This document shows positions 2,232 to 57,026 of a stretch of 64,000 nucleotides of DNA, piece after piece; position 1 is the stretch's first letter, and every line of letters begins with the position of its first letter. Location of the stretch: positions 74,479-138,478 of the forward strand of contig OY970314.1 of NCBI GenBank assembly GCA_963716475.1, read 5' to 3'. The DNA is from Candidatus Woesebacteria bacterium (GTDB taxonomy: Bacteria > Patescibacteriota > Microgenomatia > UBA8517). Position numbers and translations under genes: made by a program. The notes beneath the pieces are model-generated. The model worked only from the letters and a program-made list of their open reading frames with translations, was not told the origin of the DNA and did not search any database.

Positions 2232-2254
2232 TTATTAAGTATATAATACAAAAC

Positions 2255-3532: not shown

Positions 3533-3533
3533 T

Positions 3534-3995
3534 ATGGAAAGAACGGTAGTACTCATCAAGCCGGATGGTATTCAGAGAGGACTGGTAGGCGAGATAATGC
3601 ACAGATTTGAAAGAAAAGGGCTTAAACTGGTCGGACTTAAGATGGTCACCATGACCGATGCGATGCTTGACAGCTGGTATGTCCACCACAAAGATAAACC
3701 CTTTTTCCAGGACCTTAAGAGCTTTATGCGCTGGACTCCTGTGGTTGCCATGGTTTGGGAAGGCTTGGAAGCGGTTGCCGCCGTCAGAAAGATCGTGGGA
3801 ATTACCAAGGCGAGAGAAGCCGAAGCAGGTTCAATCCGGGGGGATTTTGGTATGAGTGGCTCACAAAATATAATCCACGCGTCAGATTCTCTGGAATCTG
3901 CGGAGAAAGAATTAGGATTAATATTTAACGGCGACGAAATCTTCGATTACGAAAGCGGTATGGACCGCCTTATTTACTCCAAAGAGGAAACTTAA
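3534..3995 (+). CDS. ndk: Nucleoside diphosphate kinase
   Basis: 'MERTVVLIKPDGIQRGLVGEI...' and catalytic-His motif 'NIIHASDS'. I chose ATG 3534 over the ORF-track start 3513, which overlaps the upstream gene. Confidence 0.93.
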   Translation: MERTVVLIKPDGIQRGLVGEIMHRFERKGLKLVGLKMVTMTDAMLDSWYVHHKDKPFFQDLKSFMRWTPVVAMVWEGLEAVAAVRKIVGITKAREAEAGSIRGDFGMSGSQNIIHASDSLESAEKELGLIFNGDEIFDYESGMDRLIYSKEET

Positions 3996-15394: not shown

Positions 15395-18300
15395 ATGCCC
15401 ACAAAAGAAAAAATCTCCGCGGTAAAAAAAGTTTTGGAAGGAATTTCTGTCTCTTCTGTTGCATCTGAGGCCGGGGTTGCCAGAAAAACAATATATTCGT
15501 GGCTAAATATTTATAAAGCCGCTGCCAAAAGAAACAAAAAAACCTGTCTCTTGCCCAAATATGTGGCGGGAAGGGCTCACCCGAGGGAATATACGCACAC
15601 TTTGGAGCAGAAGACAGTAAGACTAATAAAGAAGGACCCGACACTTAGCGTTTCCAAAATGGCTGAAAGATTAAACGCAGGACATCATGCGGTTTACAAT
15701 CTTTTAAAGGCCTTAAAATTGAACACAGAAGATTCCAGGCTTGCATACTCCCGGATTTACTCATATCCCGGTATTTTTGACCCCCAAATTAAGGAATCGG
15801 TTGCAAGGAAAATTGTGAATTCGGAAGGAAAAGTCACGGATATTTCCAGGGAGCTACGGGTTTCCAGAAAGACTATATATAAATGGTTAAAAGAATACAA
15901 AGAGAAGGGAACAGTAAGAAATAACTATTTGAAAGGTTTTGAACACCCCAGATCACTTGGCCCGGAGGCGGAAGCGTCAGTGCTCTCGCAAGTCGTAAAG
16001 GCGCCGGAACTTTCAATTCATGCCTTGGCCACCGGTTTAAACTTTTCCAATCATGCGGTTTTTAATATTCTAAAAAGAAATTTCCTGACTCAAAGAAATG
16101 CCAGGATTATCTATTCTCAGGCTCAGGCTATCCGGGTTTCCGAAAAACCGGAAGCTATCGGTTTTATCGACAGGATAAAGAGTGTTTTTGAAACCTTTAC
16201 TCCGAATCTGGCCCCGGCTCCGCCTCCGGGGGGAAAATCCAAGTTTAGCCCTCTTCTTAAAATCTCCCTGGCTTCGATAATCGTTTTACCGCTTTTCACT
16301 CTTGCCCTGGTCTATTGGGTGAATCTATTAAGGTCCGGTGCAGCAGGGAACGTCGTCGGGCTTATCTTTGCCACAATATCCCTGATTATGGGTACTTTCT
16401 TCTTTTTATATTCACTCAAATATTATTTTACGGTCGCTTTGGTTCTTTCCCGCACCCAGCAGGAAGGGTCAAAAAGCCGTACTTCTATCGGTCTTGAACC
16501 CAATCTCGATCACGTAATTCTCACAAAGAAGCCATACATATCAGTTCATATACCTTTTTATAATGAGAAGAATGTAGTAGAGCGTGCAATTGAGGCTTCA
16601 ACCAATTTCGATTACCCGGAGTATGAAGTGATTCTTTGTGATGATTCAACCGATGAAACAACAACCATTATCAGGGATTATCAAAAGAAATATCTTTCAA
16701 AAGGGGAGAGCTTAAAAATAACTACCAATAGTCAAGACGGCTGGGAGCTGTCCCATGTGGATGTCAGACCGGGAGTAACCCTTAAACATCTTCACAGGAT
16801 CTCAAGAGAAGGTTACAAGGGGGGAGCACTCAGGCTAGCTCTTACTCAGACTGATCCCAGGGCTGAGTTTGTCTCTGTCTTTGATGCCGATTTTGTTCCA
16901 TATCCTGATTCTCTAAACCTTTTCCTCAAGTACTTTAAAGCTGAGAATAACATGAGTGAGGATTATACAGTAAGTAAGGTTGCTGCGGTTCAAGGTTACC
17001 AGTGGCATGTACTTAATAAATCCGAAAACTGGATAACCAGGGGTGTCAGAAGTGAATATGCAGGTAGCTACGTTATCGAAAGAGCGGGAACTGAAATCTA
17101 TGGGGGACTAAAACAAATCTCGGGGTCAGTATATATGATTAGACGTAAGCCCCTAGAAGAAGTAGGCTGGGCCACATCAATCACTGAGGACTTTGAACTT
17201 ACTCTCAAACTATATAATGCCGGCTACAAGGTGGTCTATACACCTTATATACAAGCTCCTGCAGAATGTGTATCAACCCTAAGACGCTTAGTGAGGCAAC
17301 GTATGCGTTGGGCCGAGGGTCATTCTTTCAATGTCAAAAAGATGTTTGCAAAGCTTATGTTCTCTCCGAAACTTTCTTCTGCCGAGAAGTTTGAAACGGT
17401 TTACCTTGCCCCTTACTACCTTCAGGCATTCTTTTTTGTAGTCGGAACTCTTTCCTGGTTTATCAGTGAGACTCTCCTGCCTGCCCGTCTGCCTTTCTGG
17501 ACAGAACTTTGGGGATGGAGTCTGGTCTTAACCAACATGGTAGCCCTTCCCCTTATGAACACCGTCGGAATGTTCCTGGAAGAAAGTGAACAGAAGGACT
17601 ATACAGGAATACTATCATTCGTCGCTCTTTCATACCTTGTGGTCCCGTTTCAGGCCTACGCGGCTGTCAAGGGCTTTCTGGAGACCTCAGAAGGGCCTTG
17701 GTTTAGAACTCCCAAGACCGGTAGAATCACAGACGTCTTTGCCAGGGGTAAATTCTACAGGCTTATCAGACAGATCCTTCCCAGAAGAGCCACCTCATTC
17801 CAAAGTACTTATTCATACAACTACATTACCTTAACGACAGCAAATAATAGATTTAGCAATTTTAAAATAAAAAGGTCGGGAAATAAATATATTTCAAAAG
17901 CATTACTTACGGGATTAACGATTATTATTTTACTTTTGAATCAACTTAGCTTCTTTGCCCCGGGAGTACTTGCGGCAAGTCCTAACCCTACTATTGAACA
18001 ACAAATAAATTTTATGGATAAATTATACTCTACAACCAGCACGAGTGCCGCACCGGGCGATAATTCTTTAGGAATGTTTACTTGGAATGACTCAAAATAT
18101 AATAACGCAACTGTTAATATGGACTATGATGCTGGGAAAAGCGGAAACTTGTCTTATGGCCTAACTTCTGTGGGACTTTCTTTGGTTAATGGAACAACAT
18201 ACACACCGGCAATAAGGTATCAATGTCTTGCAGTGAGTGGAATAGCAACCGAATACGCTATTCCAGGGTTATATACGTCAGGTGGAGTTTTAGTTCAATT

Positions 18301-19282
18301 CTCAGAAGTTTCAATTTCTCTCGGCGAGGTTCCGGGTGGGAAATGTCCTACTTCAGCGAACAGAACACCTGCATATATTGCTGCGGCACGCCTAAGAATT
18401 GTACAGACAAATGCTACCGGAATTACAAATACCAGAAACATGATTGAACTGGGAGATGGTGAAACCATTTCAACAGGTACAACAGCAACTCAGCTAACTT
18501 ACCCCAAATATTGGCTTTATACATCGGGAAATTATGACGGGACTGTTACTACGACTTTTGAAGCGACTGTTTGGAGGGCCGGTGGCAGTTCATACACCGC
18601 CTACGTATGTCTGTATTCTACAGCAGGCAGTGAGATCGGGTGTGTGAGTACCACAAGTACATCCCCGGCTTACCCGACCGCAGTAAGCGTAACCCTGTCA
18701 AACGGAACCGAATATGAAGTAAGAGTCAAAGCCAGCGCAGCCGCAAAAACTGTATATATTGCAAACGCTAAAGTTATAGTTGATCAAGCAGCGGCAGGGG
18801 GAATTACCAAATTGGAAACAGTGCAACATTATAATAACACTCTGGCAACGGAATCAACATCTTCCTATGTTTCTAAGCAATTTTTAACCGAGTTTGTTTT
18901 GGATAACTGGTATGGCGGAACGTTTGCTGCCTATTTTGAGTCGGATATAAAGACTAATAACAGTTCAAATGCCTATTATGCTCGTTTGTACGATATTTAT
19001 AATGCTACCCCTATGGGAGAGATTACAGGTAATGATACTTCCTATGTTAGAAAAACCAGTTCGGATATATGGAGTTCTCTTGCTGCGGGTGGCAATACAA
19101 TGATAGACGTTCAACTGAAAAATAATTCGACCAGCACCACCTCATCATCAAATTCTTGGTTAATCATTAAAGTAACAAATTTACAAGTGCCCGAGAAGCT
19201 TATTTTTGCCCTGCCGTTGATATCCTTAATCCCGATTATAATTAAAAAAAGGAAGGAGATTCTATTAAATAGAAATGGTTGA
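15395..19282 (+). CDS. Giant gene 1: tandem HTH - polytopic processive GT2 synthase - variable ectodomain - VPE-CTERM protein
   Basis: 1295 aa. Two HTH modules ('VASEAGVARKTIYSWLNIYK', 'ISRELRVSRKTIYKWLKEYKEKG'). GT2 motifs 'CDDSTDET', 'FDADFVPYPD', 'QGYQWH', 'SITEDFELT' and 'RQRMRWAEGH'. Multiple TM segments and a Ser/Thr/Asn-rich C-terminal ~400 aa, ending 'VPEKLIFALPLISLIPIIIKKRKE'. Confidence 0.85.
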   Translation: MPTKEKISAVKKVLEGISVSSVASEAGVARKTIYSWLNIYKAAAKRNKKTCLLPKYVAGRAHPREYTHTLEQKTVRLIKKDPTLSVSKMAERLNAGHHAVYNLLKALKLNTEDSRLAYSRIYSYPGIFDPQIKESVARKIVNSEGKVTDISRELRVSRKTIYKWLKEYKEKGTVRNNYLKGFEHPRSLGPEAEASVLSQVVKAPELSIHALATGLNFSNHAVFNILKRNFLTQRNARIIYSQAQAIRVSEKPEAIGFIDRIKSVFETFTPNLAPAPPPGGKSKFSPLLKISLASIIVLPLFTLALVYWVNLLRSGAAGNVVGLIFATISLIMGTFFFLYSLKYYFTVALVLSRTQQEGSKSRTSIGLEPNLDHVILTKKPYISVHIPFYNEKNVVERAIEASTNFDYPEYEVILCDDSTDETTTIIRDYQKKYLSKGESLKITTNSQDGWELSHVDVRPGVTLKHLHRISREGYKGGALRLALTQTDPRAEFVSVFDADFVPYPDSLNLFLKYFKAENNMSEDYTVSKVAAVQGYQWHVLNKSENWITRGVRSEYAGSYVIERAGTEIYGGLKQISGSVYMIRRKPLEEVGWATSITEDFELTLKLYNAGYKVVYTPYIQAPAECVSTLRRLVRQRMRWAEGHSFNVKKMFAKLMFSPKLSSAEKFETVYLAPYYLQAFFFVVGTLSWFISETLLPARLPFWTELWGWSLVLTNMVALPLMNTVGMFLEESEQKDYTGILSFVALSYLVVPFQAYAAVKGFLETSEGPWFRTPKTGRITDVFARGKFYRLIRQILPRRATSFQSTYSYNYITLTTANNRFSNFKIKRSGNKYISKALLTGLTIIILLLNQLSFFAPGVLAASPNPTIEQQINFMDKLYSTTSTSAAPGDNSLGMFTWNDSKYNNATVNMDYDAGKSGNLSYGLTSVGLSLVNGTTYTPAIRYQCLAVSGIATEYAIPGLYTSGGVLVQFSEVSISLGEVPGGKCPTSANRTPAYIAAARLRIVQTNATGITNTRNMIELGDGETISTGTTATQLTYPKYWLYTSGNYDGTVTTTFEATVWRAGGSSYTAYVCLYSTAGSEIGCVSTTSTSPAYPTAVSVTLSNGTEYEVRVKASAAAKTVYIANAKVIVDQAAAGGITKLETVQHYNNTLATESTSSYVSKQFLTEFVLDNWYGGTFAAYFESDIKTNNSSNAYYARLYDIYNATPMGEITGNDTSYVRKTSSDIWSSLAAGGNTMIDVQLKNNSTSTTSSSNSWLIIKVTNLQVPEKLIFALPLISLIPIIIKKRKEILLNRNG
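19187..19279 (+). other. C-terminal tripartite sorting-signal-like region (VPEK / Pro-rich hydrophobic / KKRK)
   Basis: 'VPEKLIFALPLISLIPIIIKKRKEILLNRNG' at the extreme C-terminus of giant gene 1. The layout matches PEP-CTERM / archaeosortase signals. Confidence 0.65.
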
Positions 19283-19838
19283 AAAAAGGAAAATTATAAA
19301 TATTTTGCTTATAGCCAGCCTAATTTTGGCTTTACTGCCTTTTTATGTGAGCTTTCAGGATTTACTTACAAATATAGTTATGAAGGTAAATTTGTATAAA
19401 GCTTTACAAAACACAATTGTGCCATATGAAATGAAAGTGGTAGGCGGAATTATAAACCTGTTACGTTTTCCGATTAGCGCAGGCAGTAGTTATTTTTCAT
19501 GGAATATAGCCAATGGTAAAAAAGAAGCAGTCTATTTGGCCTGGAACTGTATTGGTTGGCAGACTATGATACTGTTTTTGGTGACATTAGTTACAGGTTT
19601 TTCAAAAAGACACCTCTTAAGTTCAAAAATTGAAGCTATTTTAATAGGAGCGCTAGGGACATATATAATAAACATTGTAAGGATTACTGTTGTTATTTTG
19701 ATCTATTTCTGGTTTGGCCGGGGGTTTGGAATAATATTCCACGATTACTTCTCATCTCTAATTACAATATTCTGGTTAATAGGGTATTGGCTGTTTGTTT
19801 ATAAACATACCCTAATAGAAAAATCCGTCGAAGAGTAG
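19275..19838 (+). CDS. Miniature exosortase/archaeosortase-like polytopic protein (cassette 1)
   Basis: 187 aa with about 5 hydrophobic segments. Motifs 'AWNCIGWQT', 'INIVRITV' and 'IFHDYFS' are conserved in the paralogues at 33555 and 41283. The ATG overlaps the giant-gene stop by 8 nt. Confidence 0.62.
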   Translation: MVEKRKIINILLIASLILALLPFYVSFQDLLTNIVMKVNLYKALQNTIVPYEMKVVGGIINLLRFPISAGSSYFSWNIANGKKEAVYLAWNCIGWQTMILFLVTLVTGFSKRHLLSSKIEAILIGALGTYIINIVRITVVILIYFWFGRGFGIIFHDYFSSLITIFWLIGYWLFVYKHTLIEKSVEE

Positions 19839-20473: not shown

Positions 20474-23400
20474 ATGCCCTTTTCCGAAGCTAAAAGAGAA
20501 AAGATCGTTTTATCCGTACTAAAGGATAATATTGCGGTTTCGGAAGTCTCCAGAAACTACTCTGTTGCCCGAAAAACTATTTACTCTTGGATAAAGAGGT
20601 ATAAAAAGGGAAGTCTTGCTCCACTATATACAAAGGGCAGGAAACACCCGGCGGCCGTATACCCGAAAGCCTATTCTTATATAAGTAGATGGGCTGTAGG
20701 GCACCCCAAGTGGGGATGCCGCACTTTGAGTAAAAGATTAAATGAAAAAGGAATCAGCTTGAGCTACGTTCAGGTTAACAGATTGTTGAACACAATCGGA
20801 GCGGAGACTTATGACAGAAGGTTGAATTATGCCAGAAACTTTGCCGGTCCGGGGAGAACCAGGGAGGATGTCAGGCTTGAAATTGTCAAAAAGGCCGTTA
20901 CCGGGAAAATTTCCATTACAACTCTTTCCGAAAACTACAAAGTTGCCCGTAAGACCATATATAAATGGATAGCGAAATACCGGGCCATTGGTAACATTAA
21001 AGATTCGTACGTCGTTGGTGAGGCTCATCCCAAGGCAATCTACCCGAAAATTACGCAGCAAGTACTCGACTTGGTCGTTACAAACCCCGGTTATTCGGTA
21101 CGCACTCTGGCTAAATCATTTCCGGCATCCTCTTGGACCATCTGGAGTATTTTAAATAGAAATAATCTGAATACATATAATTTAAGGCTCGAATATTCCA
21201 GGAATATATCTGAGGCTGCCGAAGAGAAAGTCTCGACAACGGGAGTTTCCGAAAGGATAAGATCTGTTTTTGAAAGCTTTACTCCAAATCTGGCTCCGGC
21301 CCCGCCTCCGGGGAAACGTAAAATCTTCAACTTCTTCATTATTTCAGTCTTCCTCTTATCAATATCCTTAGCAATTTTCTATTGGGGATCCGTAATTGTT
21401 CACGCTCCGAATATTGCCGGGTCCATAGGCATGATTTTTGCAGGCGTCTCACTGTCACTCGGAATGTTTTTCTTCCTTTATTCTCTTAAATACTATATTT
21501 CTACAGCGATAGTGCTTTCATATTCACAGAAAGAGGGCTTAGATGCCTCGAGAGTAAGCGCTACCGGCTTAAACTCAGACCTCAGTAACATTCATCTTGA
21601 ACGGCATCCTTATGTCTCGGTTCATCTGGCTCTCTATAACGAGAAGAATGTGGTGGAAAGACTGATGAAAGCAGCTACTTCTTTCGATTACGACAATTAT
21701 GAAGTAATCATCGCGGATGACTCAACTGATGAAACCACCGACAAAATCAGGGAGTTTCTGAAAACATTCCTTCCTAAAGGTGAATCGCTTCGGCAAACCA
21801 AAGGGGACGGGTGGGCAATGACAGAAGTTGACATAAGGAGCGGGGTTGTCTTTAAACATGTCCATAGAACCACAAGGATGGGTTATAAAGGGGGAGCGCT
21901 GAAGCTTGCCCTTTCTCTTACCGACCCGAAAGCTGAATTTGTTTCTGTCTTTGATGCCGATTTTGTGCCTTACCCAGATTCCCTGATGCTATTTCTTAAA
22001 TACTTCAAACTACAGAATAATGGATCAGAAGACTACAAAACAAGTAATACTGCATCAGTTCAGGGCTATCAGTGGCACGTACTTAATAAATCAGAAAACT
22101 GGATTACTAGGGGAGTCAGAAGTGAGTATGCAGGTAGCTACGTAATAGAAAGAGCCGGAACCGAAATCTACAAAGGCCTAAAGCAAATCTCGGGATCAGT
22201 TTACATGATCAGGCGCGATGTTTTGGAAGGAATAGGTTGGGGTACTTCTATCACTGAGGACTTTGAGCTTACCCTGAAACTCTACGAAAAAGGCTACAAA
22301 GTGGTTTATACGCCGTATATTCAGGCTCCGGCTGAATGCGTATCGACCCTAAGAAGACTTGTCAGACAACGTATGCGTTGGGCGGAAGGACATTCTTTCA
22401 ATGTCAAAAAGATGTTCGCAAAGCTTATGTTCTCTCCAAAACTTTCTTCCGCCGAGAAGTTTGAAACGGTTTATCTTGCCCCTTACTATCTACAGGCATT
22501 ATTCTTCCTCATCGGAACTCTCTCCTGGTTCATTTCGGAAACCATTTTACCCGCCCGCCTTCCTTTCTGGACAGAGCTTTGGGGATGGAGTTTGGTTCTG
22601 ACCAATATGATTTCACTGCCGCTTCTAAACACAGTCGGACTTTTCTTAGAGGAATCGGACAGAAAGGATTACTCGGGTATTCCATCTTTTATAGCTCTTT
22701 CATATATAGTTGTTCCGTTTCAGGCCTATGCGGCTGTAAAAGGCTTTCTGGAGAAGGAGGAAGGACCATGGTTTAGAACTCCGAAAACCGGCCGCATTAC
22801 GGATGTTTTCAAAAGAGGTAAGTTCTACAAATTTATTTCCGGGATCTTGCCGGGGAAGGCTGCCGGTTCTGCCACGAGTTATGATCTAAGTCCTTATCTT
22901 GCCCTGACCTCAGCCAATAATAGATTCAGCTCGTTCTCCATTCAAACAAGAAAAGGCAGAAGGTGGGTGGGAAAACTAATGCTAACCTCAATGCTTATTA
23001 TTTCCAATCTTCTTCTTTCTTTTTCTCCTTATATTGAATCAAGGGACGGCAACAGCCAACCTCCTCCGGGAACAGGTATTCTTATGGATGGCAGTACAAA
23101 AGGATCGGGAGGCAAGGTCAATTTAACTCCTGAGCAGCAGCAGTCTTTGGACAAATCGATTAAAGCGAATAACCAAAAAACAAGCTTTAAACTGGTTAGC
23201 GATGTCTCGGCAGCAGAAATATCCGGAGGCAGTGAGGTGAACACCTCCTTTGATGTTAAAAAGAAAGACCTTGAACTTAGCGGGGGAAATACCACCTTTA
23301 CAACTGATGAAAATCCCCAATTTACCTTAAAGCAGAACGACGGTTTTTGGGAATTTATCAAGAATATTTTCATTAAAGAAAAACCCTTGAAAGATCAGGT

Positions 23401-26400
23401 TGTTGTAACAGTTTTGGACTTAAAAGGTAAGGAGGTGGGAAGCCCGCAGGTGGTAGAAGGTGGAATTGATGATTTAAGTATAAATCTTGACAAAACAACC
23501 CTTACTCCGGGCGGATATACTCTTGAGATCAAAAGTGGGAGTAGCCCCGTTATCACCCAGGATTTCAGTTGGGGAGTGCTGGCAATAAATACCAATAAGT
23601 CGGTATATAGTCCGGGTGAAGACGCCTCCATTTCAATGGGGGTTCTTAATGAAGTTGGAGAAACGCTTTGTAGCGCGGGACTAACGCTTGATATTACAGA
23701 CACGGCAGGCACAGTTACCGCTTTAACCACAAAGGAGGGCACCATTAAAGTCAGCGATGAATGCAGCCTCAAGGGCTTCAGCCTGAAACCCGACTATGAA
23801 GCAGCCTACAAAACAACGGTTGCAGGAAAGTACAGCATGGTTCTGACTGCAGAGACTCTTAACGGCAAATATGTTATCAAGGGTTGGTTTGAGGCAAAAG
23901 ACTCGGTCGATTTTGACGTCGAAACGATTACGGCCTCCAGAATTAATCCGGTTTATGAATACCCGGTTATTTTTATAGTTAAGGCGGGTAAAGACTACAA
24001 TGGCATTGTTGAAGAAAAAGTCCCGGCCGGCTTTGAAATCAGTAAACTCAACGACTTAAAGTTGAATAACTATCTGGATTCTAAAGGGGAAAGTACGGCA
24101 AGCGGTAAACTTCAGGAGACACTGGTTAATGACGGTTCACAGGAGGCGGGACAAAAAACACTCCGTTGGATTGTTGACTGGAAAAAAGACCAGACTTATG
24201 TTCTTGCATACGCTTTTAAAGCGCCGATGGTCAGTCCAGAATTTTATCTACTCGGGCCGCTCTGGATCGGGGCATATGAGGGAGCGGGAGGTTGGCAGAT
24301 AGCCGCGGATAAGGTCCCTGCTGGGATTATTGTCGGTTGGCCGTCAACTGTAGCCTCAATTCCTAATCACTGGAGCAGGGTTTCAGGCGCGGCTCTTGAC
24401 GGGTACTTTTTAAGATCAGTAACAGCAACTGATCCGTCGGGTACTCCCGGAGGAAATGCCAGCCATACTCATTCACCGGCGAGTCATACTCATTCCGTTC
24501 CTGTCCATACACATACAGTTCCCGCTTTTGCCCAATCAACCAATACTTCGGCAACGACGGGTAACTCTACGGGTTCCGCCCGTGATACTCATACTCATGC
24601 GGCATTTAGTTCCGGAAATTCCAACGTAACCGTCAATAATGCCCAGACGGTTCCTTTTGCGGGACTTTCCAATGACCCCGATAATTCAACCGTCATCTGG
24701 ATCCAGTCGGACGGAGACCCGTCTACCGAAATTCCGGTAGGGTCTTATGTTTACTTTGACTCAAACACCATGCCGGGAGCCAACTGGGGTAGAGTAAAGG
24801 GAAATTACTTCCTTAAAGGTGCGGCAACGGGTTTAGGGGGAGGAACCGATACGGTAACAGGTTCCGCAACTCATACCCACGCCGCCTCAGCCGACCATAC
24901 CCATACTGAGGCTGCCCATACCCATTCAGGGAGCTCGGCAGGAGGTTCACTTGCTGTTTCCAGTACGGGAACTGGGTCTTACTCTCCGAGTGGCCATACA
25001 CATACCGTTACCTCAAGCTCCGTTGCGGCAACGGAGGGAGGAGCATCGGTAACCCCGACAGTCGGAGTGGCCGCTCCCTCGGGAGAACCTCCTTGGTACA
25101 AACTTAATATCATTAGTAAGTCTACAGGTGCTAATGAAACTCCTTTAAATGTCATTGCCATGTGGACCGGAACTCTGGCAACAATTCCCGACGGTTGGGT
25201 AATTTGTGACGGAACAAATGGAACTCCAAACCTGGGTACAAACTTTATCAAAGGCGCAAATGCCGACGGGGAGCTCAATACCACCGGGGGTTCCCTTACC
25301 CACACTCATGGGGCAGGCAATACCCATACACATACAATAAATGCTCACGTACACACCTGGACGGTTGGAGCTGCCTCCGGAACCGGTGTTGGATTAACGG
25401 GAAATGGAAGATCAGCCGTGGTCAGTACTCATACACATACCCTCAGCGCTGCGCAAACATCAAGTGGCGGAGGTTCAACAGGAACGGCAACTATTACGGC
25501 CGACTCGCAATCTAATCTTCCTCTCTACAAAGAGGTTGCCTACATTATGTATATCGGTAAGACTGTTGCCGGTAAAGCCTATTCGGATGAAGCAACCAGT
25601 ATCTGGGCCGGTTGTGACAACTCGACTGCCAGAATAAGTTTGGTAGTTAACGGCGGTACAGCCTCCACAACCTCATGCAGCAGTTCAGACGGATCTTTCA
25701 GTTTCAAGAATGTTACTCACGCGACAGATAATCCAATATCGGTATTTTTTAATACCGCAGGTAGCAATGCCGACAAAGGTGTGGCAGTTACTATCGCCAA
25801 CGATGCCACTACTCCGATTACCCTTAATCCCAGAAAAAATATTGTCTGGATGAGGAGTGAGAAAGCAACACCGACCATTACCAACTCCAATCTGGCTCAT
25901 TGTTATGCCTCAACCCCCGCAAGCTGTGCCAATGTCCCGTATTCTGCTTCGGGAGCCAATATAACCCTAACTACTGGAGTTGAGCTTCATGTAGAAAGCA
26001 GTATGACATATGATCCCGGGGGAACCACTGCAACCACCGGTACCGGAAGTCTGCATGTGGATGACAATGCTGTCGCATACTTGGATACTACTGGCAATAC
26101 CATTGCTAATAATATTTTAGTGGATGCCGGGGCGACCATTCATATTGATGCCAGTACGGCAGTAAACGGGGGAAATATCACGGTTACAGGTAACGGAATA
26201 GTATCTTCAGCCGCCGGAACCGTAACTATGGGGGCAAGCGGAACCATTGGGGGAGGATCAACAGGATCTACCTTCCAGTTAACAGATCTTGTTGTTTCTT
26301 CGGGGACTACAACCCTGGGGACGGATGCCGACAATATACTGGACTTTACCGGGGATATCAACGTTTCGGCCGGAGCCGTGCTTGCCATGAACAATAAAAC

Positions 26401-29400
26401 CGCTAATGTAGACGGAGGAAATCTGACGACAACTTCTACCGGGTCAGTTACCTGTTCAGGTTGTACGACTGGCGGTTTAACAATTTCAGGAGTCGGAACA
26501 ACAAATGGTATAGGCGGGGGAGGTGGAGCTATAACTTTATACAACCTGACACTTGACGGATCAACCAATACCACAACAGTCGGGTCAAGCGCCATTACGG
26601 TAACCAATGATGTAACAATAGGTACGGGAAGAACCCTGTCAGGAGCCGCATCAGGAACAATCTATGTGGGACACAACTGGGCCAACAGCGGCACTTACAA
26701 TGCCAACTCGGGAACTATTAATTTAAATGCAGCAGCCGATACTGTTCAACAGATAACAGGTGCGACCACATTTTATAATTTATATGTAGCTACTGGAGAT
26801 AGGATTATTAAATTTGGTTCATCAACCGCTTTTACCATTGATACCGGAGGAACCTTTACGGCAACAGGGGATTCCTGTTCGGCACTTGTGGTAATCCGTT
26901 CAACCACTTCCGGGAGTGCCGCAACAATTACCAAGACAGGTTCCGTTTCCTTCTCATATATAGATATACAGGATATCAACTTTTCGGCTTCTGCCTCGGC
27001 TTCTAATTCAGTCGATTCCGGAAACAACAGTAGTATCGTCATTGCAGCCAATAGCTGTCTTGGTGCATCAACCAATAACCAAGCCGCAACAGGTCATTCA
27101 TTCCAGAGAAAAGTATTCTATGATTCCGGGAATAATGTCTACTGGGGTTTCTACCATGACGGAACCCAGATCGAAGTCAGGTATTCATCAAATAGTGGCT
27201 CTACTTGGAATGTAGAAAATGACCATCTGGTACAAAATACCAACGACTTTTCCGTCTGGGACCAGACAATCTCCTCCTACTACGTCTTTTTGGCAGCCAA
27301 AAGCAGCGACAGTATTGTCTTAAGAAGAGGAACAATAACTTCAGGTGCAATCTCATGGGACAGTGAAACAACTCCGGTTACAGCCTTTACGGGGACGGGT
27401 TCAGGCGATTCTTATTCCTATCCCTATATCTCTGCCGATTCATCCGGTAATCTCTGGGTGGGAGCCAGATATTTTAACGGATCAAGTTATGTCTACAAAG
27501 CAGTCAAAAGTAACAATGCAGGAAGTGCTACCTGGACAAACGCTGCTTTTACCTGGGGAGATCCTTCTCAAATCTCTAATGATCAAGCCGACCCTAACGT
27601 TTTTGGCAATGTAGTATCCATAGGCTCGCTGAATATGTACGCAACATTCGTAGTAGGTACAACTATCAAAGGCTGTAAATACACCAATTCTCCTCCTGCC
27701 TGGAAGAATTCAGCAGGGACAGATTCATGCGTAACAACCGAGGGTAGTGGCGGCGGGGAGTCAACATATTTTGATAGCTTAAGTACCGGGTTAGTTGCGT
27801 ACTGGAAAATGAATGAAACTTCCTGGACAGGAGCGAGTAACGAGGTGGTTGATTCATCAGGCAACGGTAACAATGGAACTCGTGTAGGCGATGCAACAAC
27901 AACGGCTGCAGGGTTTTATAGGTCAGGAACGTTCGATGGGACGGGAGATAGGGTTTCTGTTCCTGACAAGACAGACTGGACATTATCGTCCGGAATAGAT
28001 CTGACATATTCAACCTGGATTAATTATACCGTATTGCCGGGGAGCACCAATTGGCCTGGTATTGTTGAAGGAGGTGATGATATGTATGGTTTCCAAATGA
28101 ATGGGCCCACTACCGGGAATATAGTTGTAGATTGGTGGGACGGTACTGTTGACCATACATCATCTTCGCAGGCTGTATCTGTCGGTACCTGGTATCATGT
28201 CGTGATAACTTTAGATTTTGGTGTAACTAATGGTTCCCATTGGTATTTTAACGGTAGAGACCTTGGAACTTTTACCGCACAAGATCGCAGTGTAAATCCT
28301 GATGCACTATATATCGGAGGTAGTGTTACCAATCCCGTTTCAAACAACGCTGTTAATGGAAAGATTGACGATCTGAGAATTTATAACAGGCTACTCTCTG
28401 GTGAAGAGGTTGCCAAACTTTATCAATATGCCCCGGATAGAGTCAATATCGACGATGCCAGTGATTTTAATGCTCCGTCCGGTAGACAAGTTGTTAGAGC
28501 GAAAAACGGGGATTTGTATACTTTTGTCAATGATGCGGGGACATGTGGGGTATGGAAGTCAACTGATGGAGCAAGTTGGTCAGAACAGGATAGTACTCAT
28601 CATAAAACTTGTATGAGTTATTCGGGGGTATCAATAGCGATTGATTCAACTGATAAGTTACATCTTTTATACGCTTCAGGATCCAACACCTTACAATATG
28701 ACACGTTTACTGCCGGGGCTTTTTCTATTCTTAATGAAAATATTTATAATGATGTTGGTGGCAATGGGCTAGGGGGTTTTGATATTGCTGTTGATGCAAA
28801 TAATATTCCCCACGTAGTCTATGTATACATAGACACGTTTACCGATAATCAACTTGGTTACGATAACCGTGTAGGTGGCGCTTGGAATGGTTCAGATGCT
28901 AACCCCGATACTGATAGTGTCGGATTGCTGTCTCCAACAATAGAGATTAATGAAACTGGGTATCCGGAAGTCTCATATATAAAGGCTAGTACTGGGGTTT
29001 TAGTGGCTAAGGCGGGAAACGGAAATGACCCCAATTTATGGGCAGGTTATAGTATAGATACGAGCGTTAATGTTACTGGCGGTCAGGGGGGTGCTTCAAT
29101 TGCAGTAGACACCTTGACCGGTAATACGTGGATAGCGTATGTCGACGGGGATAACGATATTTCTTTGGCAAAATATTCAGGGACGGATTATTCCGGATGG
29201 GAGACAGCCGGTAACTGGGCCACCGTGACCAGTAAAAGCGACGATGGGTACGACCCGTCAATTGCCATTACCGGACCTTCCGATATTTATGTTTTTTATC
29301 AGGATGATGGGGTGGCGGATAACGGAACTAATAAAAGGATCTCTTACGATATATATGATTCGATAGGAGAAGATTGGGCCGGGGAAGTTCCCCTACAAAC

Positions 29401-31612
29401 TCCAAGTTCAGGAGATTTTAAAACTGTTAAAGCCAAGTGGAGTTTTGAATGGAATAATTATGGTGCAAACAGGATTGATTATCTTTTCTCCGACGGAACC
29501 GATGTCTTCTGGAGCTATCTATACCTCCGCCGTCAGCCGACCAATATAGATGACGCCTCAAATATGGGAGCTCTTCCGGGAGAAGGCAGGCAGGTGGTGA
29601 GAACGTCAAGCGGGTATCTTTACTCTTTTATTGCCGGGAAAATGTGGAAATCAACCGATGGTGGAGCGACCTGGGCTCAAAAAGGTGCGAGTAAATCAGG
29701 CATTTTTAACACTCTAGCAGTGGGGTCGGATGATACATTACATGTCACCTTTGGGACGAGTACTACAGGTATTTTTTATGATACTTTTTCTACGTCTTCT
29801 GAAGCTTTTGCGGGATTAAATCAATCGATACATGCTTATACTGCAGGAGAGTCTATTGAAGATAGTGTGTCGATGGCATTGGATTCGAATGATATACCGC
29901 ATGTAGTTTATATTTATAACAATTCAGGCGCCACGGATACTTTTTTGATTTATGACAGCAAAGTCGGGGGTTCATGGCATACTCACTACTTGGTTTTGGA
30001 AGATAACGCGACGGGAGGCACAACCGATATTTTTAGCCCCGAAATAACGATTAATGAATCTGATTATCCTGAGGTTGTTGAATATAATGCCATGACCGGA
30101 ACGGTTCGAGGCAAGGCGGCAAATGCCAATGCTGCGACGGCGTTTGCGACCTATGTTATAGATGACAGTGTTGTAGGAACGCCGACTATCGGTATTGATT
30201 CGTCAGGAAATACCTGGGTGGCCTACGCAGACTCGGGAGATAAAATATCACTTGCAAAATACTCGGGCACTGATTTCACAGGCTGGTATACCTCGGGAAA
30301 CTGGGCTGTGAATACAAGTAAAACTCAAAAAGGATATAAACCTTCGATCGTAGTTGACGGAACTAATATTCGTGTTTTATATCAGGACGACCAAAACGAT
30401 ATTGTTTATGACACGTTTAACGGAACAAGTTGGAGCGGGGAGACTCTTCTGGAGGAACATGCAGCCCTGCAGGATGTTAAAGCCAGAGGGAGCTTTCTGA
30501 ATAATTATGATTCAACCGGGGTAGCACAGTTGAAATATAATACCTATTATTTTAATACTTACGATGGCGAACTTGGTGATCCGAATGGCGTATGGGGTAA
30601 TGATGCAAGCGCCTTTGATGGAAATACCGGTACCTCTGCCACTTCCGGCGTAAATGGGTCAACATCAAGTAATTATTTAATGGGTACAGGAACCAGTGCG
30701 CCGGCAAGCGGAGAAACGATCAGTAGTGTTCAGGTAAGATTTTATGGTGGTCAAGTTGTTGATTCTAATACAACGGTATATGCGACAGTTTCTTCTGGCG
30801 GAACAGAAATTGGAACAGCTACTATTTTTAAACTCAATGATCCCGCCTGGAGTGGTTTTGTTACTCTTTCTGCGCCCGGGGGAAGCTGGGACTGGTCTGA
30901 GGTGCAGGGATTAAATGTAAAATTATATGCCACAGGCATAGTGACTGGCTCTGTAGCGGTAAGGAAAGTGGAGATACAGGTCAAATCGACAAGTACAACT
31001 TCTCAGGCAGAAGTTGATTATGTGTATTCTGATGGCACGGATGTGTTTTACAACCGCCTGCTTTTAGGCGGTACCAGCTCAATTTCGGGAACCCAGGATC
31101 CGATTGACGACTTGATCCCCGCTGATATATCTAAAAATATCTCAACAGTTGCCGACGGGAGCGGGAATGTCCACATACTTTATATCAAGGACTCCGCTAC
31201 GGATTATGTAGCTTACAAGAAGTGGAACGGGACAAGCTGGGATGTAAGCCCGACGAGTATTGAATCAAACGCCAACGCAGCCTATCTGACACTATCCCGT
31301 GCCTCGGATACGGGAGATCTCTATGCCCTTTGGATTGACACATCCGCCAATACAATCAGAAAAAGTATATTTACCTCAAGCTGGTCCGGTCCTACCGCCT
31401 GGCAGAATCCGGGTGTAACAATCACAAACCTTTCCTCTTCGTATTCTGCATCCGCAGTATTTTCTGAGTGGACAATCGGAGCCCTTGCTCCTTTTGAAAT
31501 AAATGCTGGCGTGCTTAAAGTTCCAGAATATCTGCTTTTATTCCTACCCCTTGCACCGCTTTTGCCGTTTTTATCAAGAGTTAAGAAGAAAAGGGGAGCT
31601 CTGATTAGGTAG
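20474..31612 (+). CDS. Giant gene 2: tandem HTH - processive GT2 synthase - ~2800-aa multidomain ectodomain - VPE-CTERM protein
   Basis: I chose ATG 20474 ('MPFSEAKREKIVLSVL', parallel to gene 1 'MPTKEKISAVKKVL') over ORF-track TTG 20438, which is the -35 box. It has the same chassis motifs as gene 1, including a 66-aa identical run. The ectodomain carries Ig-like modules, HxH collar-like modules, Gly/Thr-rich beta-helix-like repeats, a LamG domain and duplicated Asp-box units. It ends 'VPEYLLLFLPLAPLLPFLSRVKKKRG'. Confidence 0.85.
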   Translation: MPFSEAKREKIVLSVLKDNIAVSEVSRNYSVARKTIYSWIKRYKKGSLAPLYTKGRKHPAAVYPKAYSYISRWAVGHPKWGCRTLSKRLNEKGISLSYVQVNRLLNTIGAETYDRRLNYARNFAGPGRTREDVRLEIVKKAVTGKISITTLSENYKVARKTIYKWIAKYRAIGNIKDSYVVGEAHPKAIYPKITQQVLDLVVTNPGYSVRTLAKSFPASSWTIWSILNRNNLNTYNLRLEYSRNISEAAEEKVSTTGVSERIRSVFESFTPNLAPAPPPGKRKIFNFFIISVFLLSISLAIFYWGSVIVHAPNIAGSIGMIFAGVSLSLGMFFFLYSLKYYISTAIVLSYSQKEGLDASRVSATGLNSDLSNIHLERHPYVSVHLALYNEKNVVERLMKAATSFDYDNYEVIIADDSTDETTDKIREFLKTFLPKGESLRQTKGDGWAMTEVDIRSGVVFKHVHRTTRMGYKGGALKLALSLTDPKAEFVSVFDADFVPYPDSLMLFLKYFKLQNNGSEDYKTSNTASVQGYQWHVLNKSENWITRGVRSEYAGSYVIERAGTEIYKGLKQISGSVYMIRRDVLEGIGWGTSITEDFELTLKLYEKGYKVVYTPYIQAPAECVSTLRRLVRQRMRWAEGHSFNVKKMFAKLMFSPKLSSAEKFETVYLAPYYLQALFFLIGTLSWFISETILPARLPFWTELWGWSLVLTNMISLPLLNTVGLFLEESDRKDYSGIPSFIALSYIVVPFQAYAAVKGFLEKEEGPWFRTPKTGRITDVFKRGKFYKFISGILPGKAAGSATSYDLSPYLALTSANNRFSSFSIQTRKGRRWVGKLMLTSMLIISNLLLSFSPYIESRDGNSQPPPGTGILMDGSTKGSGGKVNLTPEQQQSLDKSIKANNQKTSFKLVSDVSAAEISGGSEVNTSFDVKKKDLELSGGNTTFTTDENPQFTLKQNDGFWEFIKNIFIKEKPLKDQVVVTVLDLKGKEVGSPQVVEGGIDDLSINLDKTTLTPGGYTLEIKSGSSPVITQDFSWGVLAINTNKSVYSPGEDASISMGVLNEVGETLCSAGLTLDITDTAGTVTALTTKEGTIKVSDECSLKGFSLKPDYEAAYKTTVAGKYSMVLTAETLNGKYVIKGWFEAKDSVDFDVETITASRINPVYEYPVIFIVKAGKDYNGIVEEKVPAGFEISKLNDLKLNNYLDSKGESTASGKLQETLVNDGSQEAGQKTLRWIVDWKKDQTYVLAYAFKAPMVSPEFYLLGPLWIGAYEGAGGWQIAADKVPAGIIVGWPSTVASIPNHWSRVSGAALDGYFLRSVTATDPSGTPGGNASHTHSPASHTHSVPVHTHTVPAFAQSTNTSATTGNSTGSARDTHTHAAFSSGNSNVTVNNAQTVPFAGLSNDPDNSTVIWIQSDGDPSTEIPVGSYVYFDSNTMPGANWGRVKGNYFLKGAATGLGGGTDTVTGSATHTHAASADHTHTEAAHTHSGSSAGGSLAVSSTGTGSYSPSGHTHTVTSSSVAATEGGASVTPTVGVAAPSGEPPWYKLNIISKSTGANETPLNVIAMWTGTLATIPDGWVICDGTNGTPNLGTNFIKGANADGELNTTGGSLTHTHGAGNTHTHTINAHVHTWTVGAASGTGVGLTGNGRSAVVSTHTHTLSAAQTSSGGGSTGTATITADSQSNLPLYKEVAYIMYIGKTVAGKAYSDEATSIWAGCDNSTARISLVVNGGTASTTSCSSSDGSFSFKNVTHATDNPISVFFNTAGSNADKGVAVTIANDATTPITLNPRKNIVWMRSEKATPTITNSNLAHCYASTPASCANVPYSASGANITLTTGVELHVESSMTYDPGGTTATTGTGSLHVDDNAVAYLDTTGNTIANNILVDAGATIHIDASTAVNGGNITVTGNGIVSSAAGTVTMGASGTIGGGSTGSTFQLTDLVVSSGTTTLGTDADNILDFTGDINVSAGAVLAMNNKTANVDGGNLTTTSTGSVTCSGCTTGGLTISGVGTTNGIGGGGGAITLYNLTLDGSTNTTTVGSSAITVTNDVTIGTGRTLSGAASGTIYVGHNWANSGTYNANSGTINLNAAADTVQQITGATTFYNLYVATGDRIIKFGSSTAFTIDTGGTFTATGDSCSALVVIRSTTSGSAATITKTGSVSFSYIDIQDINFSASASASNSVDSGNNSSIVIAANSCLGASTNNQAATGHSFQRKVFYDSGNNVYWGFYHDGTQIEVRYSSNSGSTWNVENDHLVQNTNDFSVWDQTISSYYVFLAAKSSDSIVLRRGTITSGAISWDSETTPVTAFTGTGSGDSYSYPYISADSSGNLWVGARYFNGSSYVYKAVKSNNAGSATWTNAAFTWGDPSQISNDQADPNVFGNVVSIGSLNMYATFVVGTTIKGCKYTNSPPAWKNSAGTDSCVTTEGSGGGESTYFDSLSTGLVAYWKMNETSWTGASNEVVDSSGNGNNGTRVGDATTTAAGFYRSGTFDGTGDRVSVPDKTDWTLSSGIDLTYSTWINYTVLPGSTNWPGIVEGGDDMYGFQMNGPTTGNIVVDWWDGTVDHTSSSQAVSVGTWYHVVITLDFGVTNGSHWYFNGRDLGTFTAQDRSVNPDALYIGGSVTNPVSNNAVNGKIDDLRIYNRLLSGEEVAKLYQYAPDRVNIDDASDFNAPSGRQVVRAKNGDLYTFVNDAGTCGVWKSTDGASWSEQDSTHHKTCMSYSGVSIAIDSTDKLHLLYASGSNTLQYDTFTAGAFSILNENIYNDVGGNGLGGFDIAVDANNIPHVVYVYIDTFTDNQLGYDNRVGGAWNGSDANPDTDSVGLLSPTIEINETGYPEVSYIKASTGVLVAKAGNGNDPNLWAGYSIDTSVNVTGGQGGASIAVDTLTGNTWIAYVDGDNDISLAKYSGTDYSGWETAGNWATVTSKSDDGYDPSIAITGPSDIYVFYQDDGVADNGTNKRISYDIYDSIGEDWAGEVPLQTPSSGDFKTVKAKWSFEWNNYGANRIDYLFSDGTDVFWSYLYLRRQPTNIDDASNMGALPGEGRQVVRTSSGYLYSFIAGKMWKSTDGGATWAQKGASKSGIFNTLAVGSDDTLHVTFGTSTTGIFYDTFSTSSEAFAGLNQSIHAYTAGESIEDSVSMALDSNDIPHVVYIYNNSGATDTFLIYDSKVGGSWHTHYLVLEDNATGGTTDIFSPEITINESDYPEVVEYNAMTGTVRGKAANANAATAFATYVIDDSVVGTPTIGIDSSGNTWVAYADSGDKISLAKYSGTDFTGWYTSGNWAVNTSKTQKGYKPSIVVDGTNIRVLYQDDQNDIVYDTFNGTSWSGETLLEEHAALQDVKARGSFLNNYDSTGVAQLKYNTYYFNTYDGELGDPNGVWGNDASAFDGNTGTSATSGVNGSTSSNYLMGTGTSAPASGETISSVQVRFYGGQVVDSNTTVYATVSSGGTEIGTATIFKLNDPAWSGFVTLSAPGGSWDWSEVQGLNVKLYATGIVTGSVAVRKVEIQVKSTSTTSQAEVDYVYSDGTDVFYNRLLLGGTSSISGTQDPIDDLIPADISKNISTVADGSGNVHILYIKDSATDYVAYKKWNGTSWDVSPTSIESNANAAYLTLSRASDTGDLYALWIDTSANTIRKSIFTSSWSGPTAWQNPGVTITNLSSSYSASAVFSEWTIGALAPFEINAGVLKVPEYLLLFLPLAPLLPFLSRVKKKRGALIR
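24319..25560 (+). repeat. Three phage tail-collar-like modules with 12 H-x-H triplets (protein-level repeat)
   Basis: Examples: 'IAMWTGTLATIPDGWVICDGTNGTPNLGTNFIKGA...GGSLTHTHGAGNTHTHTINAHVHT' and 'SHTHSPASHTHSVPVHTHT'. The region terminates with 'NLPLYKEVAYIMYIG'. Confidence 0.7.
27787..28430 (+). other. LamG-like (concanavalin-A-like lectin/glucanase) jelly-roll domain inside giant gene 2
   Basis: 'LVAYWKMNETSW...VVDSSGNGNNGT...GTFDGTGDRVSVPD...TWYHVVIT...GKIDDLRIYNRLLSGEEVAKLY' is the canonical Laminin_G_3 pattern. Confidence 0.8.
28442..31075 (+). repeat. Intragenic tandem duplication of a ~360-aa Asp-box/beta-propeller-like unit, second copy with ~155-aa insertion
   Basis: Unit A runs 28442-29530 ('VNIDDASDFNAPSGRQVVRAKNGDLY...VWKSTDGASWSEQ...DYLFSDGTDVFWSYLYL'). 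Unit B runs 29540-31075 ('TNIDDASNMGALPGEGRQVVRTSSGYLY...MWKSTDGGATWAQ...DYVYSDGTDVFYNRLLL'). The insertion is at about 30544-31010. Confidence 0.7.
31520..31609 (+). other. C-terminal tripartite sorting-signal-like region (VPEY / Pro-rich hydrophobic / RVKKKR)
   Basis: 'VPEYLLLFLPLAPLLPFLSRVKKKRGALIR' at the extreme C-terminus of giant gene 2. Confidence 0.65.
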
Positions 31613-31624: not shown

Positions 31625-33550
31625 ATGAAAAGAAAATTTAATTTAAATGTTATCGGTAAGATATTTCTTTTGGCTTCGTTTCTAATACCTTTTGTTATTT
31701 ACCTTAAGACGCTTTGCCCGACGCTTTCCTCCTATGCTGATGCGGGAGAGTTCCCGACCTTTGCTTATATAAGCGGTTTTGCCCATCCTCCTGGGTACCC
31801 CCTGTATATTCTGATACTCAAGTTGTTCCTTTTATTGCCGGTCGCGGGGAGTGTTGCCATGAAAGCCAATTTGGCATCGGCATTTATCTCCGCGGCTTGC
31901 GTCGCCCTTACCTATCTTTGGCTGAGAAGACTAAAATTGGAAGAGGGCGTTGCCTTCACAACCTCGCAAATACTGGCCTTTACACCGATTTTTTGGAGAA
32001 ACGCGTTGATTTCCGAGGTCTTCGGTCTTCTGACGTTATTTATTGTTTTAACCAATTACATGTATCTAAGATGGACCGAGACGGGGGAGAAGAGGGACTT
32101 TTATCTTTTTCTTTTCTTTTGCGGTCTTGGCCTTTCCCATCACCAGCTTTTGATGATAGCTCTTGTTCCGCTTTTAGTGCATTTCATTATTACCAAGAAA
32201 TGGAAATTGATTAATTATAAAAATGTAATAATCGGAATAGCTCTGTTTTTGATTGGGTTCTTACCGTATTTATATATATTGTTATATTCTGCACCGCGTT
32301 GGCCTCTAATGAACTGGAACAACCCCAGCAGTTTGGTAGGTCTTAAGGAATTGATCACCCGTTCGACTTATGGCACTTTTACACTGACGAATCAGTATCA
32401 GGCGTCCGATTTAAAGGTACAGGCCTGGGGGATATTAAAGTTGATTTATAGTAATTATTCGCTTTTTGGAATCGTACTTTTTCCTTTCGGATTAATTTAC
32501 CTCCTTCTAAAAAAGAAGTGGGGCATGACCGCAACCAGCCTCTTTGTAATAATTGCTATTTTTCTTTTCTCCCTCTATTCGGGTATGCCGGTTTTGCAGA
32601 ACAGCCAAATACAATATCTGGAGCGTTTTCAACTTGCAAGCACGGCCTTTATGATTCTTATCATTGCCTTTGGAATTTCCTTTTTCAGGGACCTTGTTTT
32701 TTCCATTAAGCCTCTGAGAGTTCCGGTGCTAATTTTGTTCATGCTGATTCCGGCCGGCCTTGTCTATACAAATTACGCAAAAGTGGATCAAAGTAAAAAT
32801 TACTTTGCAGATAACCTTGCGGATGATATTTTTGCTTCCATCCCTAAAGACAGCATTTTTTTGATGGAGGGGGACAATGTCATTAATGATGTTTTTTATA
32901 ACCGCTACGTTTTGGGACAAAGGAAAGACATCATTTTTATCATAGGCGGACTTATGGACGCCCAGAGTCCCTGGTACCTACAGGAACTGAGGCGTTTTTA
33001 TCCGGACCTGGTTCTGCCTGAAGTTACCGACGACAGAACAGACTACTTAGACGCTTTCCTGGCAGAAAATTCGATAAAAAGGCAAATAATCTTGTATTTA
33101 CCCTCGCTTGAAAACGATTTGGGAATATACATCAATAAAGTAAATAGGGGAATTGTCTGGAAATTTGTCAGGGAGGATGAAGAAGTTTATCTGGGTGATG
33201 TTCAGGATGAAATCCTTGCGCTCACCGGTAGCTACAAAAACCTGAAAGGGAGATTAAATTATACGCTCGATTCTCCCGAATACGCTTTATTGAACCTTTA
33301 TACCCAACCTTATATTTATCTGGCTCAGATGAACGATGACGATCCTGTCTTATCAGAAGAGTACTATAAAAAGGCATTGGCAATTACGCCGGATAATTAT
33401 CAGGCTTTGACCGAGATGGGTGATGACTACTTGATGTATGGGGAGTATGAGAAAGCGGTCGCAAGCTGGAAGCAAGCTCTGAATTATATTTACGATAGTG
33501 ATTTGAGGGATGAAGTTTTGGCAAAAATAGACGAATACCAAAACCAGTAA
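31625..33550 (+). CDS. DUF2723 (TMEM260-like) GT-C membrane glycosyltransferase with C-terminal TPR repeats
   Basis: 641 aa. It has the N-terminal signature 'DAGEFPTFAYISGFAHPPGYPLY', about 10 hydrophobic segments and TPR-like 'EEYYKKALAITPDNYQALTEMGDDYLMYGEYEKAVASWKQAL'. It starts 12 nt after the giant gene 2 stop. Confidence 0.7.
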   Translation: MKRKFNLNVIGKIFLLASFLIPFVIYLKTLCPTLSSYADAGEFPTFAYISGFAHPPGYPLYILILKLFLLLPVAGSVAMKANLASAFISAACVALTYLWLRRLKLEEGVAFTTSQILAFTPIFWRNALISEVFGLLTLFIVLTNYMYLRWTETGEKRDFYLFLFFCGLGLSHHQLLMIALVPLLVHFIITKKWKLINYKNVIIGIALFLIGFLPYLYILLYSAPRWPLMNWNNPSSLVGLKELITRSTYGTFTLTNQYQASDLKVQAWGILKLIYSNYSLFGIVLFPFGLIYLLLKKKWGMTATSLFVIIAIFLFSLYSGMPVLQNSQIQYLERFQLASTAFMILIIAFGISFFRDLVFSIKPLRVPVLILFMLIPAGLVYTNYAKVDQSKNYFADNLADDIFASIPKDSIFLMEGDNVINDVFYNRYVLGQRKDIIFIIGGLMDAQSPWYLQELRRFYPDLVLPEVTDDRTDYLDAFLAENSIKRQIILYLPSLENDLGIYINKVNRGIVWKFVREDEEVYLGDVQDEILALTGSYKNLKGRLNYTLDSPEYALLNLYTQPYIYLAQMNDDDPVLSEEYYKKALAITPDNYQALTEMGDDYLMYGEYEKAVASWKQALNYIYDSDLRDEVLAKIDEYQNQ

Positions 33551-57009: not shown

Positions 57010-57026
57010 GGTTTATTTTTAATTAA

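Follow-up and report, generated by a model that had tools for sequence, protein, structure and literature searches.

A triplicated, histidine-rich unit of phage fibre-tip type in a giant surface protein of a Candidatus Woesebacteria bacterium: a candidate single-chain pseudo-trimer

Contig OY970314.1 of a Candidatus Woesebacteria bacterium (assembly GCA_963716475.1) was analysed over a stretch of 64,000 nt (positions 74,479 to 138,478 of the forward strand, referred to below as the window). It carries a giant open reading frame (ORF) in which a run of His-x-His (HxH) motifs is concentrated within a single segment, aa 1290–1710 (Table 1). This segment consists of three homologous modules of ~140 aa, each with four HxH motifs, and is related to the tips of phage tail fibres. 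We favour, with modest confidence, the reading that the unit is a monomeric, single-chain pseudo-trimer of phage fibre-tip modules with four metal sites of six histidines each (His6), likely to act as a binding knob on a surface protein of this tiny, probably host-dependent member of the candidate phyla radiation (CPR). Direct support comes from the homology itself, the fixed three-module architecture, the conservation of the histidines, the distribution of the family among phages and CPR bacteria, and a confident, compact prediction for the monomer.

An initial annotation, made from the sequence alone, had described three consecutive modules in this region, and the peptides it quoted are all present in the plus-strand ORF. 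Its tally of a dozen H-x-H triplets was exact: there are 12 between aa 1343 and 1667, of which 11 are the tripeptide HTH and one is HVH. The coordinates it gave, 24319–25560, enclose the right region, but the start is one base out of frame, as translation from 24319 runs into stops and the frame begins at 24320. The peptide VIWIQSDG, which had been placed at the start of module 2, is reassigned here, since the homologue alignment shows it to be the C-terminal strand of module 1 and the counterpart of YKLNIISKS and VAYIMYIG.

Within each module, three HxH motifs (a to c) lie 7–8 residues apart and the fourth (d) follows 26–28 residues further on, the spacings being 7/7/28, 8/7/26 and 8/7/28 in modules 1 to 3. 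Histidine accounts for 5.9% of residues in the HxH region compared with 1.0% in the remaining protein, and shuffling this region 100,000 times never gave 12 HxH motifs (the maximum was 8). The modules recognise one another in BLASTP comparisons with E values from 8e-13 to 2e-19, and a single-module hidden Markov model (HMM), run against the six-frame translation of the whole window, gave exactly three matches (nt 24311–24715, 24728–25126 and 25136–25558). The linkers that join them are only 8–10 aa long. The G+C content over the unit is raised (52–53%, against ~44%). Recent transfer was considered as an explanation and rejected, because the G+C content at third codon positions (GC3) is 0.42, compared with 0.41 for the whole gene, and the composition tracks amino-acid content; the unit bears no sign of recent transfer.

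A search of 5.8 billion proteins returned 732 matches, the best 120 of which were used to assess coverage. Some 105 of these 120 cover 97–99% of the query, about 13 more cover 75–89%, and one (P0101) covers 39%. The initial annotation had taken conservation of the histidines in orthologues as a point on which its proposal would stand or fall, and in alignments of 29 and 121 sequences each of the 24 histidines that make up the 12 motifs is either invariant or conserved to 90% or more. A HMMER scan of 1.84 billion representatives put the number of relatives at 20,975 for E ≤ 1e-3, of which 1,084 also pass E ≤ 1e-30; NCBIfam has no model for the triple HxH unit.

The number of modules is regular. 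By the single-module HMM, all of the best 120 matches have exactly three, and among 246 family proteins there are three modules in 241, six in four and nine in one, while none has 4, 5, 7 or 8. In the proteins with higher counts (P0121, P0122, P0123, P0124 and P0166) the complete triple unit occurs two or three times, the copies being side by side or having spacers of at least ~140 aa between them, and P0166 has 41 HxH motifs in total. When modules of different proteins were compared, 86 of 87 had as their nearest neighbour a module of like position (M1, M2 or M3), from which it follows that the triplication is old and fixed and that the three positions have separate identities. The most variable parts of the alignments are the loops between HxH sites c and d (the c–d loops).

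The relationship to phage tail-fibre and tail-collar proteins, as first proposed, is upheld by a match of the unit to PHROG 5795 ('tail protein') with an E value of 1.7e-36, by further matches to tail collar fibre and tail fibre PHROGs, and by profile matches to fibre proteins of known structure. Searched against the PDB, a profile of the 121-member family matched only 9nxk (Pa223 gp60, 1.6e-12), 6ov6 (the C24 tip, 2.5e-10) and 9qgo (1.4e-8), all three deposited as three chains, and a single-module profile gave the same list. The match to this superfamily of tail-fibre tips (C24 / Pa223 gp60 type) is significant and takes in the C-terminal strand as well as the collar. Pa223 gp60 forms a homotrimer, and its tip resembles that of T4 gp37 (10.1101/2025.06.11.659172); C24, from a Bizionia prophage, has been described as a receptor-binding tip (PMC11821841). 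Both are virion proteins and single-module homotrimers with one or two HxH motifs per chain, whereas the protein of the window is a cellular surface protein.

T4 gp37 itself gave no significant sequence match to either the family or the single-module profile in the PDB search. The unit is similar to the gp37 tip (2XGF) in fold, and it shares with the gp37-type needle a set of conserved, in-register HxH pairs. T4 gp37 is described as having seven Fe ions held by HxH pairs (as cited in PMC11705849). The gp37 tip is homotrimeric, each chain bringing a single module, and has seven metal sites, while the unit described here has three modules per chain and four HxH layers. The Pfam Collar profile (PF07484), named in the initial annotation as a check, fails to reach its gathering cutoff of 24 bits, its score being 19.8 bits for the 414-aa fragment and, when the whole protein is used, 13.5 bits; the partial match takes in profile positions 3–22 of 57 and lies in module 3 only. 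The N-terminal motif of this module is indeed like that of Collar proteins (T4 gp12 short-fibre type; COG4675, MdpB-like), but modules 1 and 2 are without the CDG...TP.L loop. Among the relatives listed, about one in five has a PF07484 match in precomputed annotation.

Relatives with the same triple architecture occur in phages. The fragment from the window, compared by tblastn with 50,697 phage records, gave no match at 1e-10. With the family member P0066 as query against 50,697 phage genomes, a multi-module match was obtained only in Actinoplanes phage phiAsp2, in which Pas28 has 3 modules and 12 HxH motifs (3 x 4), as does Pas29. The depositors of the phiAsp2 record annotated Pas29 with 'HXHY motifs; possible receptor recognizing protein'. 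Independently produced monomer models from BFVD superimpose on the whole unit with template modelling (TM) scores of 0.75 for Pas29 and 0.66 for Pas28, over ~450 columns at 30% identity. In Pas28, Pas29 and PHROG 5795 the three-module, 12-HxH unit is matched from end to end. These are uncharacterised phage tail-gene products in which the triplication has gone undescribed, whereas the protein of the window is chromosomal, membrane-anchored and 3724 aa long. Stand-alone versions of ~425 aa are found in three contigs of SU10-like podophages (L001, L009 and L010), next to genes for an SU10-type adaptor, portal and capsid. In L010, the gene for the stand-alone triple-HxH protein has a ferritin-family gene (4587–5063) ~3 kb upstream of it, which may be relevant to the metal loading of the histidine sites.

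Other relatives are cellular, so that the suggestion of module sharing between phages and cells also holds: the family is found both in phages and in cellular CPR proteins. Among the matches listed, the closest are membrane-anchored proteins of Parcubacteria, with 43–51% identity, encoded at ordinary cellular (chromosomal) loci; in these the unit follows a single membrane anchor. A search for related loci, run with the alignment of close relatives, returned only loci of Parcubacteria FeB_17 already among these, plus one weak archaeal fragment, and an exact 50-mer from the HxH region had no match in the genome contigs searched. Two relatives in cellular loci, P0007 and P0204, carry the unit on a prepilin-type N-terminus (TIGR02532, above cutoff). 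The gene for P0007 (L003, 10001–11953), from Parcubacteria FeB_17, adjoins the pilus genes T2SSE, T2SSF and N_methyl (PilB/PilC-type). The gene for P0204 (L011, 5792–8482) is directly followed by one of the HupE/UreJ (Ni/Co transporter) family.

From these data we infer a pseudo-threefold geometry, metal binding and an adhesive role for the unit. Phage fibres of this type are built of three identical chains, each contributing one module round a three-fold axis, and each HxH layer brings six histidines to one metal ion. In the protein of the window, three tandem, anciently triplicated copies of the fibre-tip module (a collar part followed by the HxH 'needle') would instead come from one chain and form one structural unit, a monomeric pseudo-trimer with four stacked His6 sites (layers a–d). 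Both ends of the chain would lie at the collar end, and the hypervariable c–d loops at the far tip. In gp37-type tips (2XGF) the chain runs outward to the tip and then back to the collar. With such a path, and with linkers of 8–10 aa, tandem modules could not stack along a fibre but could sit side by side round one axis. As a single-chain pseudo-trimer the unit would fold independently of trimerisation, which fits its occurrence in multi-domain (LamG, MG2-like), membrane-anchored and prepilin-fused settings. The giant surface protein is anchored in the membrane and is probably both glycosylated and processed by an exosortase; the unit would project from its ectodomain, where it would most likely serve as a rigid knob, stapled by metal, that binds a partner cell or a polymer. 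Adhesion is a plausible function.

An AlphaFold2 (AF2) model of the 423-aa unit as a monomer, computed from the 121-sequence alignment, has a mean predicted local distance difference test (pLDDT) score of 85.5 and a predicted TM (pTM) score of 0.81. The inter-module linkers score 93–97 and the HxH a–c segments ~90, the low-confidence parts being the c–d loops. Module 3 modelled alone from the same sequences gave a lower pTM of 0.54, fewer strands and pLDDT values of 67–88 over its HxH segment. An analogy for such an arrangement is provided by PAAR proteins and the T4 gp5.4 spike tips of phage-tail-like machines, where a metal-binding cone of pseudo-threefold symmetry is made by a single chain from its three internal repeats. 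Their fold and sequence are, however, unrelated to those of the unit, the metal ligands differ, and they cap a trimeric spike.

Several observations weigh against a single-chain pseudo-trimer. The packing of three homologous modules as a trimer by AF2 could reflect the learned fold only. The comparison with module 3 alone (pTM 0.54 against 0.81) makes a weak control, as pTM itself drops with the length of the chain. The module counts were drawn from rankings in which proteins of three or more modules are favoured, and relatives with one or two modules exist at lower ranks. In one clade of 19 sequences the first histidine of M2a and that of M3d have been lost together, M2a becoming NxH by replacement with Asn, and this joint loss is not predicted by a simple model in which each layer is made by the same site of all three modules. 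The joint loss of M1b and M3b in 9 sequences does fit a shared layer, but the sequences are related, so that co-loss is uninformative as a test of the metal layers. Lastly, the unit is at the very N-terminus in 201 of the 246 family members, so that in phages it may serve for attachment or as a structural element and not as the receptor binder at the distal end.

The strongest competitor, which we nonetheless think unlikely, is an ordinary homotrimeric fibre, in which three giant proteins (or three stand-alone phage proteins) associate and each module forms a separate trimeric knob, making 12 metal sites per trimer. It has in its favour that every solved relative is a homotrimer and that HxH metal sites are known solely on true three-fold axes. 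Serial stacking, on the other hand, gives no reason for module numbers of 3, 6 or 9 only, and stacking would itself be prevented by the short linkers if the chain returns to the collar as in 2XGF. The compact, confident monomer prediction also speaks against it, and an obligate trimer would be awkward in pilin fusions and beside monomer-type domains (LamG, MG2). The metal-stapled trimeric fibre put forward in the initial annotation is therefore retained as regards fibre-tip homology, while a homotrimer of the giant protein is probably wrong, the evidence favouring a pseudo-trimer made by one chain. Since both arrangements predict four metals per chain, metal analysis alone cannot separate them, and it is the oligomeric state that can.

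A different possibility accepts the pseudo-trimer but makes it a rigid spacer or stability element only, with ligands bound by the LamG and BNR-like parts of the ectodomain. Such a role would suit the large share of the ectodomain taken up by other domains, the N-terminal position of the unit in many phage relatives (with other domains after it), and the fibres of Pa223, which are of like type, are highly conserved and have had their receptor role questioned (10.1101/2025.06.11.659172). It sits poorly with the c–d loops, which are the most variable part of the family, as would be expected of a binding surface, and with the C24 and gp37 tips, which are receptor binders according to PMC11821841 and PMC11705849; we hold this possibility to be quite improbable. 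Least convincing of all, and very doubtful, is a string of three independent collar-like domains with His-rich loops that singly bind or sense metal (for instance Ni/Zn/Fe capture or storage at the cell surface), a view to which the high histidine content, the HupE/UreJ gene directly after that of pilin-fused P0204 and the ferritin gene near the phage copy in L010 lend something, but which is at odds with the pTM of 0.81 and the linker pLDDT of 93–97, with the fixed number of modules and the orthology of each position across proteins, and with motifs that are strictly HxH and in register, like structural fibre sites rather than irregular histidine tracts.

The giant protein that carries the unit begins with two helix-turn-helix domains, followed by transmembrane segments, a family 2 glycosyltransferase (GT2) domain, further transmembrane segments and an ectodomain of ~2800 aa. 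The portion beyond the last transmembrane-like segment is predicted to be extracellular, a topology that relies on the positive-inside rule. The order seen in the ectodomain, with an MG2-like domain ahead of the triple unit, recurs in relatives P0142, P0244 and P0058. Repeats resembling S-x-D-G-x-(T/S)-W (SSNSGSTW, STDGASW, STDGGATW) are spread over nt 26000–31500 (aa ~1900–3690); they have no Pfam match at E ≤ 1, and they suggest beta-propellers of BNR/sialidase type on either side of LamG.

At its C-terminus the giant protein has the features of an exosortase/archaeosortase (PEP-CTERM-like) substrate, recognised at the sequence level as a C-terminal motif, a hydrophobic helix, a basic tail and a nearby sortase-family gene. 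The product of that gene (33555–34127) is likely to be the enzyme that processes the VPE tail. Between the two, nt 31625–33550 encode a PMT/TMEM260-like protein O-mannosyltransferase with TPR repeats, and its proximity suggests that the ectodomain is O-glycosylated.

Table 1. Features of the giant ORF, its HxH unit and the associated sortase-family ORF (nt positions in the window).
Feature	Position	Strand	Remarks
Giant ORF, 3724 aa	20438–31612	+	Likely ATG start at 20453
Two transposase-type helix-turn-helix domains, cytoplasmic N-terminus (~aa 15–230)	20480–21127	+	Pfam HTH_28, HTH_32, HTH_23
GT2 glycosyltransferase domain (aa 394–702), transmembrane segments on both sides	21617–22543	+	Pfam Glyco_trans_2_3, 1.6e-16; hydropathy
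Last transmembrane-like segment (aa 844–863)	22967–23026	+	RKGRR just before; hydropathy
MG2-like Ig domain, weak, upstream of HxH unit	23588–23731	+	Pfam
Triple-module HxH unit (aa 1290–1710)	24305–25567	+	Three modules, four HxH each
Module 1 (aa 1290–1426)	24305–24715	+	GIIVGW...IPNHW, four HTH, end ...VIWIQSDG; without CDG-NGTP-L loop
Module 1 HxH a, b, c (aa 1343, 1350, 1357)	24464–24514	+	
Module 1 HxH d (aa 1385)	24590–24598	+	
Module 2 (aa 1427–1565)	24716–25132	+	Most divergent collar part, four HTH, end EPPWYKLNIISKS
Module 2 HxH a, b, c (aa 1479, 1487, 1494)	24872–24925	+	
Module 2 HxH d (aa 1520)	24995–25003	+	
Module 3 (aa 1566–1710)	25133–25567	+	Full collar motif NVIAMWTGTLATIPDGWVICDGTNGTPNL, four HxH, end NLPLYKEVAYIMYIG
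Module 3 HxH a, b, c (aa 1622, 1630, 1637)	25301–25354	+	
Module 3 HxH d (aa 1665)	25430–25438	+	
Laminin_G_3 / concanavalin-like lectin domain (aa 2500–2659), later in ectodomain	27935–28414	+	Pfam, 2.2e-21
C-terminal sorting-signal-like tail	31520–31609	+	VPEYLLLFLPLAPLLPFLSRVKKKRGALIR: VPE motif, hydrophobic stretch, basic tail; pattern also in both paralogues
Exosortase/archaeosortase-family ORF, downstream of giant gene	33555–34127	+	NCBIfam TIGR04178, 32.2 bits (cutoff 23)

Two paralogues of the giant gene lie in the window (15395–19282 and 35013–41273). They have the same helix-turn-helix and GT2 front end and a variable ectodomain, and are without the HxH unit. A VPE motif, hydrophobic stretch and K/R tail end all three giant proteins, and each gene is followed by an ORF of ~190 aa that passes the TIGR04178 cutoff (19275–19838, 33555–34127 and 41283–41888, with 38.3, 32.2 and 31.6 bits, respectively). 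To judge by these pairings, this one CPR genome looks like it has three substrates, each with a dedicated sortase. The ORFs at 15395 and 35013 likewise have helix-turn-helix domains at their N-termini, and the relative P0142 (4157 aa) begins with HTH_28. Fusion of a transposase-type helix-turn-helix to a membrane glycosyltransferase and surface protein could represent a DNA-binding regulator that is tethered to the membrane and linked to a surface domain.

The window is chromosomal and holds genes for ArgRS, MreB, UppS and two tRNAs, and the HxH unit, lying inside a membrane protein of helix-turn-helix–GT2 type, is not among phage tail or structural genes there. The nearest named relatives of the window ArgRS are from Candidatus Microgenomates (71–73% identity), in agreement with the initial view that the host is a CPR bacterium of Microgenomates-like affiliation. 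Elsewhere in the window, large membrane proteins are clustered at nt 49791–60615 together with two radical SAM enzymes; one of the membrane proteins has a PTPS_related domain, and most of the cluster is without a family match.

The fibre-tip fold is already known, and the unit is a variant of it with three modules in one chain. Searches of the literature library used here found no prior description of a pseudo-trimeric HxH fibre tip, nor of a tail-collar unit in CPR bacteria. If the unit should instead be part of a common homotrimeric fibre, what remains is a known phage domain in a new cellular setting. If the three modules do form one pseudo-trimer, they would provide a natural case of a homotrimeric fibre fold made single-chain, and would explain how a phage receptor-binding tip could be transferred into cellular proteins that do not trimerise, such as surface giants and pilins. 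With its four predicted His6 metal sites and three sets of variable loops, the unit makes a compact scaffold that could be of interest for the engineering of phage receptor-binding proteins.

For CPR bacteria, whose attachment to host cells is little understood, the unit offers a small (~420 aa), defined candidate adhesion module. More tentatively, it may belong to a large undescribed family (at least ~1,000 clusters at 50% identity) of single-chain, pseudo-trimeric, metal-stapled needles, in which triplication removed the need to trimerise and so would have allowed insertion as a cassette into monomeric proteins, with CPR bacteria perhaps having taken it up on giant surface proteins and type IV pilins for attachment to their hosts.

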